A stretch of 64,000 nt of DNA, from assembly GCF_003790525.1 (NCBI RefSeq), contig NZ_CP033635.1; one strand, 5' to 3'. A model generated the notes under the pieces. That model was not told the DNA's origin. It made no database searches and saw nothing but the letters and a program-made list of their open reading frames with translations. Shown here piece by piece: positions 26,108-56,011 of the stretch (position 1 is its first letter; every line of letters starts with the position of its first letter). The position numbers and the translations under genes are program-made. This stretch comes from Escherichia coli. GTDB lineage: Bacteria > Pseudomonadota > Gammaproteobacteria > Enterobacterales > Enterobacteriaceae.

Positions 26108-27433
26108 ATGAGCAAAGTAACTCCCCGGCCGAAAATCGGCTTTGTTTCCCTTGGCTGTCCGAAAAACCTTGTCGATTCAGAGCGTATTCTCACCGAACTA
26201 CGCACTGAAGGTTATGACGTGGTACCGAGCTATGACGATGCGGACATGGTGATCGTCAACACCTGCGGCTTTATTGACAGCGCGGTACAAGAATCACTGG
26301 AAGCCATTGGTGAAGCGTTGAATGAAAACGGCAAGGTAATTGTGACCGGTTGTCTGGGGGCAAAAGAAGATCAGATCCGCGAAGTCCACCCGAAAGTGCT
26401 GGAAATCACCGGGCCTCATAGCTATGAGCAGGTTCTGGAGCACGTTCATCACTACGTGCCAAAACCGAAACACAACCCATTCCTGAGCCTGGTGCCAGAA
26501 CAAGGTGTGAAACTGACACCGCGTCATTATGCCTATCTGAAAATTTCTGAAGGCTGTAATCACCGCTGCACCTTCTGCATTATTCCGTCTATGCGCGGCG
26601 ACCTGGTGAGCCGTCCGATTGGCGAAGTGTTAAGTGAAGCGAAACGTCTGGTTGATGCGGGCGTTAAAGAGATTCTGGTGATCTCGCAGGATACTTCCGC
26701 GTATGGCGTCGATGTTAAACATCGTACTGGCTTCCACAACGGCGAGCCCGTAAAAACCAGCATGGTCAGCCTGTGCGAACAGTTATCGAAACTGGGGATC
26801 TGGACACGTCTGCACTACGTTTACCCTTATCCGCATGTGGACGACGTCATCCCACTGATGGCAGAAGGCAAAATCCTGCCGTATCTGGACATTCCGTTGC
26901 AGCACGCCAGCCCGCGCATTCTCAAACTGATGAAGCGTCCGGGTTCTGTAGATCGCCAACTGGCGCGCATCAAACAGTGGCGCGAAATCTGCCCGGAACT
27001 GACCCTACGCTCAACCTTTATTGTCGGCTTCCCTGGCGAGACGGAAGAAGATTTCCAGATGCTACTCGACTTCCTGAAAGAAGCACGTCTGGATCGCGTT
27101 GGCTGCTTTAAATACAGCCCGGTTGAAGGTGCAGACGCCAATGCCCTGCCTGACCAGGTTCCGGAAGAAGTGAAAGAAGAACGCTGGAACCGTTTCATGC
27201 AGTTGCAGCAGCAGATTTCCGCCGAGCGCCTGCAAGAGAAAGTGGGCCGTGAAATTCTGGTGATTATCGACGAAGTGGACGAAGAAGGTGCGATTGGTCG
27301 CAGCATGGCAGATGCACCGGAAATCGACGGCGCGGTTTATCTCAATGGTGAAACCAACGTTAAGCCGGGTGATATCCTGCGTGTGAAAGTCGAGCACGCC
27401 GATGAGTACGATTTGTGGGGTAGCCGGGTTTAA
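26108..27433 (+). CDS. rimO: Ribosomal protein S12 methylthiotransferase (radical SAM)
   Basis: CxxxCxxC radical-SAM motif (CNHRCTFC), MTTase N-terminal and TRAM domains; 441 aa. Confidence 0.92.
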
Positions 27434-27617
27434 TTAATCTTAAGGCAGATCTAACAAGGATATTGTTCTTCGATCTGCCTCTGCTACCCTTCCCGATGTC
27501 CTACCCTTACGCACAAAATCCCCTGACGCATAAATCGAGAAAAATGTATCGTACTCGAGGCAACTCTCACTTTTTCACACCAAATTAAAGTTTTGATCGC
27601 AATTACTTGAAATAAGC

Positions 27618-27643
27618 GTAATGGTTACTATAGTAAACATTAC
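27618..27643. promoter_or_regulatory. Near-perfect inverted repeat upstream of the toxin gene; candidate operator
   Basis: gtaatggttacta / tagtaaacattac, arms match 12 of 13; lies just upstream of the SD (aagga) and ATG at 27659. Confidence 0.5.
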
Positions 27644-27658
27644 CACAAGGATGGATGT

Positions 27659-28045
27659 ATGGGTGTGTATAAGGCAAGACGATTCAGCCAAAGCACGAAA
27701 AAACTTGGTATTCACGATAAAGTTCTCATGGCTGCCGCTGAAGAAGTGATGCAGGGCATATGGGAGGCTGATTTAGGTAGCGGTGTCATCAAAAAACGTT
27801 TACCCCTCCAACAAGGAAAGAGTGGTGGAGCCAGAACAATTATCTTTTTTAAATCAGCAAATCATGTGTTTTTTTATGATGGTTGGTCCAAGAGTGGTCT
27901 AAGCAGTAAAGGAACCAAAGAAATCGAAGATGATGAACTGGCGGCCTACAAAAAAATGGCAAATGCATTTCTGGCCTTTAGCAATAAGCAAATAGAGGAT
28001 TTGATCGAAACTGGCTTTTTGATTGAGGTGAAAAATGAGCGATAA
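27659..28045 (+). CDS. Type II toxin, HigB-2 / RelE-like family
   Basis: 128 aa; GKSGGARTIIFF motif resembling the GxGGxRxI core of HigB-2-type toxins; toxin-first order with an 11-nt overlap onto an HTH gene; absent from this position in K-12. Confidence 0.7.
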   Translation: MGVYKARRFSQSTKKLGIHDKVLMAAAEEVMQGIWEADLGSGVIKKRLPLQQGKSGGARTIIFFKSANHVFFYDGWSKSGLSSKGTKEIEDDELAAYKKMANAFLAFSNKQIEDLIETGFLIEVKNER

Positions 28046-28364
28046 ATTACAAATGATGCTGGAAGATGCAAAGGAACTGAATGCACTGGGCCTGATGTCT
28101 GATAGTGAAGTTGATGCCATTGCCGTCATGGTCAAAGCTCGTGAAGTCAGCGCCCGTATAGCCAAAGTCAAATCAATGACGGGTGAAGAGATCAAAGCCA
28201 TCCGCACCCGATACGGCATGTCACAATCCGTGCTGGCACATACAATGGGAATGTCAAAAGAAAGTGTCTCGAAATGGGAACGTAATGAAATAAAACCGAG
28301 CGGCCCGGCATTACGTATTTTGAATACATTGGCAATAAAAGGGCCGGAAGTTTTTGCAAAGTAA
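28035..28364 (+). CDS. HTH (XRE-type) antitoxin, HigA-2-like
   Basis: 109 aa; C-terminal HTH (GMSQSVLAHTMGMSKESVSKWE) after an N-terminal extension; translationally coupled to the toxin. Confidence 0.7.
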   Translation: MSDKLQMMLEDAKELNALGLMSDSEVDAIAVMVKAREVSARIAKVKSMTGEEIKAIRTRYGMSQSVLAHTMGMSKESVSKWERNEIKPSGPALRILNTLAIKGPEVFAK

Positions 28365-28433
28365 AATGTTTGCAAATGATTTACCACATTCATTAGTACC
28401 CCTTGATTAAGGGGTACTAACACTATTCTAATT

Positions 28434-29762
28434 CTACTGCCAGCTAATCTGCGCCCTGCCGTTTTTCTTACTCTTATACAGCCGCTCATCCGCCAGCATT
28501 TTCAAGCGTTCGACGGTAGGACATTCATTTGAATGCGCTACACCGATACTGGTACTTAAATTAATGCTTCCCACCTGGAAATGAACGATTTCTTTTAGAA
28601 TCGATAGCAACTCTTCCAGCGTTCCACCCGTATAAATCACCGCAAATTCGTCACCACCGAAGCGGTAGACTTTACCTTTATCTACCGGGATCTGTGATTT
28701 AAGGATTTTCACCACTTTCATCAACACTTCATCGCCCAGCAAATGACCGAAGGTGTCGTTGATGTTTTTGAATTTATCGACATCAAAAAGACACAGATAG
28801 CCGCCTTTTTCCGGCAGGGCTTTTAAATCTTCGTCAAAGGATTTTCTGCCCATTGCTTTGGTCAGGTCATCCAGGAACGCCGAGTTATACAGACTGTAGA
28901 GTTTTTTGACATCGGCAGCCGAAAAGAAAAGCCCGCCATCCAGTACGCGTTCAAAATGGTTATTAATGATGGCTTCTTTCTCCACAACACCACGATTAAT
29001 CACTCTGCGTACCAGATAGAGGCAACTGGCACCCGATATCACTGCCACCAATGCGGCAAAGAAAATAATCAATGTACAGACCCGCAAATAAACATCTTTT
29101 TTATACGCAAATACGTACAATCCGGTCGGCAAATAGGCGAAGTGCTCCATCGCTTCCGAAACGGTGAAGATGGCGTTTTTAGCATTATATTCATCACCGG
29201 TCACCGGTTTACCGTTCTTAAACAGAGAGAACATCAGGTTCTCGCTGTCCATCGCCAGCGATTTTGACAGTAAAGAAAAACGTTCCAGACCAAGCAAAAA
29301 TATCAGACTGCGATTGTGAGTTACCGGATAGAGGTAATAGACGAAGGTTTTACCGTCAAAAGAGATAAACCCTGTATTTTTGACATGTCGATACTTCACA
29401 ACCTGCATAATATCTGCACAATAATTTTTCTCGAACTCCTTTACCTGAATACATTCGTCACTGGAAATCAGATAAGGACCGACATCGTACAAATAAGAGG
29501 GTGAAAGCGAGTCGGCGTAAGCTGTGCGTAAGCCAACCAACAGCTGTTCCTCCGTAGGATTTAGCGTGTTGATCAGATCAATTGCCACACTACGCCGATA
29601 TTCAGCAATATTTGCCACCGCAAAAGCAGTATCAATAACGGACTGTTTCAGGCCATACACCCGTTCCTTTACCATTTGAGTGTAGATCCCGCAGGCAACT
29701 GCTGAAATCATGATAAAAATCAGCAGACTGACTGTAAGTACGAATTTATTGATTCTGGACAT
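28434..29762 (-). CDS. dgcI: Diguanylate cyclase (GGDEF domain), membrane-anchored
   Basis: 442 aa; RFGGDEF active-site motif; synteny (yliF). Confidence 0.88.
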
Positions 29763-54646: not shown

Positions 54647-54998
54647 AACCACCTCAAATGTGATTCAAATAAGTCCTAAGTTTTAAATATATCAAAAATT
54701 AATGGGAAACTCTTCGCGATTTATGATGTCTAACGGGCCATTTCATGTAACAGAACGTTTCCATACACCGCTATCCATCTAAATTTAAATCACTTTTTCA
54801 GAGAACTGCGTAAGTATTACGCATGTTTTCCCTGTCATTCATCCAGATTATTCCTAATCACCAGACTAATGATTCCATCAATCCTGGCGCATTTTAGTCA
54901 AAACGGGGGAAAATTTTTTCAACAAATGCTCAACCAGCATTGGGTATATCCAGTACACTCCACGCTTTACTTAGGTTTAGATATTTGTGGGAGAAAGG

Positions 54999-55886
54999 AT
55001 GCCTGGTTCATTACGTAAAATGCCGGTCTGGTTACCAATAGTCATATTGCTCGTTGCCATGGCGTCTATTCAGGGTGGAGCCTCGTTAGCTAAGTCACTT
55101 TTTCCTCTGGTGGGCGCACCGGGGGTCACTGCGCTGCGTCTGGCATTAGGCACGCTGATCCTCATCGCGTTCTTTAAGCCATGGCGACTGCGCTTTGCCA
55201 AAGAGCAGCGGTTACTGCTGTTGTTTTACGGCGTTTCGCTGGGGGGGATGAATTATCTTTTTTATCTTTCTATTCAGACGGTACCGCTGGGTATTGCGGT
55301 GGCGCTGGAGTTCACCGGACCACTGGCGGTGGCGCTGTTCTCTTCTCGTCGCCCGGTAGATTTCGTCTGGGTTGTTCTGGCGGTTCTTGGTCTGTGGTTC
55401 CTGCTACCGCTGGGGCAAGACGTTTCCCATGTCGATTTAACCGGCTGTGCGCTGGCTCTGGGGGCCGGGGCTTGTTGGGCTATTTACATTTTAAGTGGGC
55501 AACGCGCAGGAGCGGAACATGGCCCTGCGACGGTGGCAATTGGTTCGTTGATTGCAGCGTTAATTTTCGTGCCAATTGGAGTGCTTCAGGCTGGTGAAGC
55601 ACTCTGGCACTGGTCGGTTATTCCATTGGGTCTGGCGGTCGCTATTCTCTCGACCGCTCTGCCTTATTCGCTGGAAATGATTGCCCTCACCCGTTTGCCA
55701 ACACGCACATTTGGTACGCTAATGAGCATGGAACCTGCGCTGGCTGCCGTTTCCGGGATGATTTTCCTCGGAGAAACACTGACACCCATACAGCTGCTGG
55801 CGCTCGGCGCTATCATCGCCGCTTCAATGGGTTCTACGCTGACAGTACGCAAAGAGAGCAAAATAAAAGAATTAGACATAAATTAA
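54999..55886 (+). CDS. rhtA: Threonine/homoserine exporter (DMT superfamily)
   Basis: Start refined to MPGSLRKMPVWL (295 aa); 10-TM EamA-type. Confidence 0.88.
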   Translation: MPGSLRKMPVWLPIVILLVAMASIQGGASLAKSLFPLVGAPGVTALRLALGTLILIAFFKPWRLRFAKEQRLLLLFYGVSLGGMNYLFYLSIQTVPLGIAVALEFTGPLAVALFSSRRPVDFVWVVLAVLGLWFLLPLGQDVSHVDLTGCALALGAGACWAIYILSGQRAGAEHGPATVAIGSLIAALIFVPIGVLQAGEALWHWSVIPLGLAVAILSTALPYSLEMIALTRLPTRTFGTLMSMEPALAAVSGMIFLGETLTPIQLLALGAIIAASMGSTLTVRKESKIKELDIN

Positions 55887-56011
55887 ATTTACATTTCTGC
55901 ATGGTTATGCATAACCATGCAGATTTTCTCGCTACTTTTCCTCTACACCGTCTTTATATATCGAATTATGCAAAAGCATATTTATTCCGAAAATTCCTGG
56001 CGAGCAAATAA

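Follow-up and report, generated by a model that had tools for sequence, protein, structure and literature searches.

The spacer between a toxin-antitoxin (TA) operon and the convergent gene dgcI of Escherichia coli contains a perfect hairpin that probably acts on RNA as a stem-loop which defines transcript 3' ends and blocks exonucleases. The evidence for this reading is strongest for the TA transcript; for dgcI the reading is plausible. An optional TA operon, found in about 21 % of complete E. coli genomes, O157:H7 included, is thus likely to have its 3' end here, as is dgcI in these TA-bearing strains, which has little import beyond annotation. The hairpin seems to be an ordinary, so far unannotated member of a well-described class and not a new kind of element.

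A perfect hairpin between convergent genes

The window, by which we mean the whole 64-kb stretch of DNA analyzed, has the gene order yliI, bssR, rimO, toxin, antitoxin, dgcI, pdeI, gsiDCB around the hairpin, and its positions 27200-28700 are 100 % identical to E. coli SMS-3-5 (NC_010498.1). The features of the locus are collected in Table 1. Upstream of the toxin gene, the palindrome overlapping the predicted promoter is probably the antitoxin operator, since 92-96 % of it is conserved in the related modules of Kluyvera (L012) and Siccibacter (L013). A literature search on a TA pair at rimO-dgcI found nothing relevant.

Table 1. Features of the rimO-dgcI region, in positions of the window
Feature	Position	Strand	Description
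rimO	26108-27433	+	Upstream neighbor of the TA segment
TA-allele-specific segment	27439-28434	.	996 nt; in 1138/5426 genomes
Second allele-specific hairpin	27443-27480	.	9-bp outer stem AGGCAGATC/GATCTGCCT; -16 kcal/mol
Sigma-70 promoter (predicted)	27607-27634	+	TTGAAA-16-TATAGT
Palindrome (probable antitoxin operator)	27618-27643	+	GTAATGGTTACTA/TAGTAAACATTAC; overlaps the -10 of the predicted TA promoter
Toxin gene	27659-28045	+	RelE family PF06296, E = 6.9e-33
Antitoxin gene	28035-28364	+	HTH_3; 11-nt overlap with the toxin gene
Spacer between convergent antitoxin and dgcI stops	28365-28433	.	69 nt; TA-allele-specific; without homology to TA relatives
Hairpin	28393-28420	.	12-bp perfect stem TTAGTACCCCTT / AAGGGGTACTAA; 4-nt loop GATT
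C-rich, G-poor tract (candidate rut region)	28421-28480	+	19 C, 6 G; antisense to the dgcI 3' end
dgcI	28434-29762	-	GAPES2 + GGDEF; convergent with the TA operon

An inverted-repeat search returned arms at 28393-28404 and 28409-28420 with 100 % complementarity and 4 nt between them, only five of the 12 pairs being G-C. The initial annotation had the site of this perfect hairpin right and its stem one pair short, at 11 bp. It had also placed the hairpin between two convergent genes, as is indeed the case: the antitoxin stop codon lies at 28362-28364 and that of dgcI, on the minus strand, at 28434-28436, so that a transcript would reach the hairpin 28 nt after the former or 14 nt after the latter.

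The hairpin folds stably in either direction. Alone, the 28-mer has a folding energy of -17.2 kcal/mol for each of the two strands (z = -4.6 and -5.1), and the fold of its 86-nt intergenic context has a z of -4.6 on the plus strand and -3.35 on the minus strand. The fold of the 69-nt spacer is dominated by it. Perfect hairpins with at least 12 bp and a loop of 3-8 nt are rare, with two in the window compared to the 0.03 expected from dinucleotide shuffles of the same 64 kb. Rfam covariance models run across 27000-29000 gave no match at E <= 10.

The second of these two long perfect hairpins is the palindrome TCTGCATGGTTATG/CATAACCATGCAGA at 55896-55923, in the gap 3' of an ORF at 54987-55886 (+). 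It is a perfect 28-bp palindrome without a loop and is followed by TTTTCT.

The hairpin lacks the tail of an intrinsic terminator

The stem is followed by CACTATTCTAAT on the plus strand and by TGAATGTGGTAA on the minus strand. As noted in the initial annotation, neither tail has a T-run: the first 8 nt after the stem (CACTATTC and TGAATGTG) contain only 3 T on either strand. No A-tract precedes the stem, and a scan with the terminator consensus makes no call at the hairpin. Having no U-tract, the hairpin is therefore not a canonical intrinsic terminator.

It could nevertheless be a weak Rho-independent terminator of both genes, pausing and releasing the polymerase arriving from either side despite a poor U-tract. 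Its site between convergent genes and its stable fold on both strands would fit such a role, the plus-strand tail CACTATTCTAATTCT is moderately T-rich, and two of the TA relatives described below have canonical terminators at the same position. It shares with canonical intrinsic or bidirectional terminators a place between two convergent stop codons and the ability to form on either transcript, but it is without the U-tract and the A-tract that define them. Intrinsic termination in E. coli depends strongly on the U-tract. With only 3 T in the first 8 nt of each tail, no upstream A-tract and no call from the consensus scan, we regard termination by the hairpin itself as unlikely. Of the bidirectional terminator suggested in the initial annotation, the stem-loop serving both 3' ends is retained and the canonical intrinsic type, for want of a U-tract, is given up.

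The base composition further downstream differs between the two strands. Counting the 60 nt after the stem, the plus strand has 19 C to 6 G, which places it at the 98.6th percentile of all 60-nt windows, while the minus strand, with 11 C to 9 G, is at the 61st percentile. Because the minus strand has no such excess of C over G, an argument for a rut region is limited to the TA transcript. Even there, the C-over-G tract is the antisense of the 3' end of the dgcI coding sequence and may therefore merely mirror its codon content.

A probable 3'-end stem-loop for the TA transcript

E. coli transcripts terminated by Rho have been found to end precisely at stable stem-loops (Dar & Sorek 2018, PMC6061677). 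The stem-loops at these 3' ends have reduced U, no upstream A-tract and a mild enrichment of C over G downstream, and there is evidence that PNPase and RNase II trim the transcripts back to the stems (PMC6061677). The hairpin described here resembles that class in being a stable stem-loop soon after a stop codon, without a U-rich tail or an A-tract, and on the TA strand it may resemble the class in the downstream excess of C over G as well. It differs from the class in that the minus strand is without the C-over-G bias.

Our observations comprise the structure and its position, the lack of a U-tract, the association with one allele and a C-over-G bias on one strand; from these we infer the following steps at the level of the transcript. 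The TA operon transcript would start near 27641, as predicted from the promoter, and end at about 28420, giving a length of roughly 780 nt. As there is no U-tract, the hairpin by itself probably does not release the RNA polymerase. Transcription would instead continue into the C-rich, G-poor antisense of dgcI, which is untranslated and as such a natural Rho substrate, and Rho would terminate there. The 3'-to-5' exonucleases PNPase and RNase II would then trim the RNA back to the stem, which would both define and protect the 3' end. As a perfect palindrome, the stem can also form shortly after the stop codon of the dgcI mRNA and could serve that transcript likewise.

The initial annotation had allowed for a role in RNA processing, and transcript 3'-end formation on both strands, with a strong fold on either of them, is the best reading of the hairpin. 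Term-seq data exist for O157:H7 Sakai (PMC7547250). We also looked for an entry for rimO or dgcI in PMC7815308 as a source of per-locus 3' ends and found none.

Among known extragenic elements, REP/BIME sequences are similar in being palindromes between convergent genes that are able to block 3' exonucleases. The hairpin differs from them in being single-copy (in 1138 genomes) and relatively AT-rich and in having no REP consensus.

Two alleles of the rimO-dgcI gap

We compared the locus across 5426 complete E. coli genomes. The TA pair is present in 1138 of them, in one piece in 1128 and split into two places in 9 of the remaining 10. The hairpin also occurs in 1138 genomes, all TA-bearing. 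The initial annotation had left it undecided whether the hairpin belongs to the inserted module or to the backbone; it goes with the TA segment and, rather than standing unchanged in the TA-free genomes, is absent from all 4287 of them.

In those 4287 genomes the 996-nt segment is replaced by a segment of 42 nt, TCAGGCCGGGCAAAATCATTTGTCCGGCCTGCGAATAATGAT (L001 541-582). The two alleles part 5 nt after the rimO stop codon (27438/27439) and rejoin within the stop codon of dgcI (28434/28435), which is TAG in the TA allele and TAA in TA-free genomes. The hairpin is located 14 nt inside the right edge of the allele-specific segment.

The 42-nt allele has a hairpin of its own, CAGGCCGGGCAAA ATCA TTTGTCCGGCCTG, whose 13-bp stem and 4-nt loop fold at -23 kcal/mol; this hairpin is single-copy and has neither a T-run nor a U-tract. 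The two hairpins have in common the gap they occupy, the 4-nt loop, the single copy and the lack of a T-run. They differ in sequence, which is unrelated, and in composition and stability, the TA-free one being GC-rich and stronger (-23 vs -17 kcal/mol). At the other end of the TA allele, the second hairpin of Table 1 follows the rimO stop codon by 10 nt, again without a T-run and with a sequence unrelated to that of the first, and it probably plays a like role at the 3' end of rimO in TA-bearing strains. Taken together with the TA-free hairpin, this means that in both alleles each of the convergent genes ends near a stem-loop without a U-tract. In the TA-bearing allele, the hairpin stands in for the U-tract-less hairpin of the backbone, and either version of the gap keeps such a structure between convergent genes.

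By eye, 10 nt of the TA-free 42-mer, AAATCATTTG, also match 28373-28382 in inverted orientation; we roughly estimate the chance expectation of such a match at about 0.1.

Diversity of the hairpin within E. coli is minimal and amounts to two haplotypes plus few variants. The first haplotype, found in 696 genomes, is identical to SMS-3-5 across 28385-28428. The second has A28409C, the sole common polymorphism, and is found in 437 genomes (O157:H7, O55:H7, ATCC 8739 and others). This substitution affects no pair but the loop-closing one, which it opens at a cost of 0.9 kcal/mol (-17.2 to -16.3). Other variants are few, and some of them come from error-rich assemblies such as HS-02. In the HS-02 (L006) and BS-01 assemblies the annotation shows the TA genes as fragments, and the locus has many 1-nt deletions, which look like sequencing errors and not biology. 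Elsewhere, E. coli STK78-E (L003) has the order rimO - IS1 - gsiD, with dgcI and pdeI lost in an IS1-associated deletion.

It is conceivable that the hairpin is more than a passive 3' end: an insulator that works in both directions and is selected along with the TA pair or, at the DNA level, a palindrome involved in the rearrangement behind the two rimO-dgcI alleles. We hold either to be very unlikely. An insulator, if this were its function, would limit convergent interference between the TA operon and dgcI and would set the stability of the TA mRNA and hence the balance of toxin and antitoxin.

Related TA modules have unrelated stem-loops at the same position

Related TA modules were compared in enterobacterial genomes (Kluyvera sichuanensis L012, L032/L033, L034, L037, L035, Siccibacter L013, Enterobacter sp. 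L038), in Proteus (L015/L009) and in plasmids of Xenorhabdus, Providencia and Erwinia (L007, L008, L010). The antitoxin of L035 falls in a cluster named Kluyvera georgiana. The DNA that these relatives have in common with the window is confined to 27608-28365, from the operator palindrome to the antitoxin stop codon. The E. coli hairpin is absent from the relatives in 10 other contexts, and among those compared no homologous hairpin was found outside E. coli.

What recurs is a structure at this position: of 10 related TA loci, 8 have a strong hairpin, unrelated in sequence, in the gap that follows the antitoxin stop. In L012, L032, L035, L037, L038 and L008 the antitoxin is followed by a strong stem-loop, in no case with a T-run after it as judged by eye; L012 and L035, both with G+C-rich gaps, have weak shuffle z-scores (-2.4 and -1.7). 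Erwinia L010 and Proteus L015, both outside the gsiD neighborhood, have canonical U-tract terminators after the antitoxin. Position and structure are thus repeated while the sequence turns over, which is the pattern of transcript-end hairpins and not that of a protein-binding or recombination site.

Two possible origins of the hairpin sequence were considered and rejected. The minus strand of the hairpin has 12 nt, TACCCCTTAATC, in common with the gsiD stop region of L032, L033 and L034, as would a relic of a gsiD 3' end. We attribute this match to chance: blastn against a database of about 55 kb gives it an E of 0.18, and a chance match of 14 nt from the other flank does better (E = 0.029). 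A relic of the SMI1 gene, which in L032 separates rimO from the TA pair, gave no tblastn match.

The neighborhood of the related modules bears on the direction of the change in E. coli. L032 has the order rimO (95 % amino acid identity) - SMI1 - TA (74 % and 78 %) - gsiD (88 %), L012 and L037 have bssR - TA - gsiD, and L035 has TA - gsiD. The E. coli order is rimO - TA - dgcI - pdeI - gsiD, and only there do pdeI and dgcI lie between the TA pair and gsiD. From this gene order, the TA pair looks like an old resident of the gsiD...rimO/bssR neighborhood. Given related pairs in the same neighborhood, it may be the TA-free allele that is derived, in which case the arrangement of K-12 would be a deletion and the TA allele the older state. 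The module had initially been described as inserted; that it is an allele-specific segment is borne out, while insertion itself is uncertain. The TA neighborhood in Kluyvera-like genomes may prove to be a more useful result than the hairpin.

The same comparison bears on the possibility that the hairpin is a palindromic site on DNA where the HTH antitoxin or some other regulator binds to control the TA pair or dgcI. In favor of this, the palindrome is perfect and adjoins the gene of an HTH protein, and its arms contain GGTACTA / TAGTACC, which by eye is loosely like the GGTTACTA / TAGTAA core of the promoter palindrome. These half-sites are everted and 14 bp apart, unlike those of the promoter palindrome, and repeat searches find no link between the two. 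The operator at 27618-27643 is conserved in L012 and L013 and the hairpin is not, which argues against the hairpin as an antitoxin operator. As it also lies downstream of both genes, with no obvious target for repression, we consider a regulatory binding site highly improbable.

Features that speak against a mobile element

The initial annotation had raised a role at an insertion boundary, and the hairpin might accordingly be the end of a mobile unit (IS, MITE, IS200/IS605-like, attC or dif-like) that moved the TA cassette into the gap. Its location close to the right junction, the second hairpin 4 nt inside the left junction and an 11-6-11 layout that is superficially like a Xer site are the points in favor of such an origin. 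The two end hairpins, however, are without common sequence, and the segment has no terminal inverted repeat or target-site duplication. The 996 nt contain the TA ORFs only and no transposase or integrase ORF, and we found no recombinase nearby. There is no partner repeat and no other copy: across the 1138 genomes the hairpin occurs once per genome and always at the same locus (being a palindrome, it yields two places per genome, one by each strand, which are one site). A GTTRRRY core and any resemblance to dif are lacking by eye. The related modules, which share with E. coli only the operator-to-stop DNA and lack the hairpin, and a synteny that suggests an old resident of the neighborhood also speak against it. 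We therefore drop the insertion-boundary role, and a mobile-element end seems to us highly improbable.

Specific types of element fared no better. Cargo of the IS200/IS605 or PATE kind, with subterminal hairpins, was rejected on account of the unrelated hairpins, the single-copy fixed locus and the lack of a TnpA gene, and attC and dif-like sites were rejected on reading the sequence, which has no core motifs and no similarity to them.

A phage collection has no match to the allele-specific segment, and the full-length matches of this segment in E. coli "plasmid" entries are records of 0.7-4.9 Mb, most likely chromosomes or chromosome fragments. Viral contigs do match the stem: a scan of IMG/VR for the 9-bp stem core AGTACCCCT-N6-AGGGGTACT returned 16 stretches that represent 3 independent hairpins with unrelated flanks, and these three are unrelated to the E. 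coli hairpin. In one giant-virus MAG, GVMAG-S-1101171-79 (IMG/VR, L020-L023), a longer palindromic repeat, ...CTTATACTAAATTTA AGTACCCCTCCTCTGAGGGGTACT TAAATT..., is conserved in four copies; this repeat has only the 9-bp stem core in common with the E. coli hairpin.
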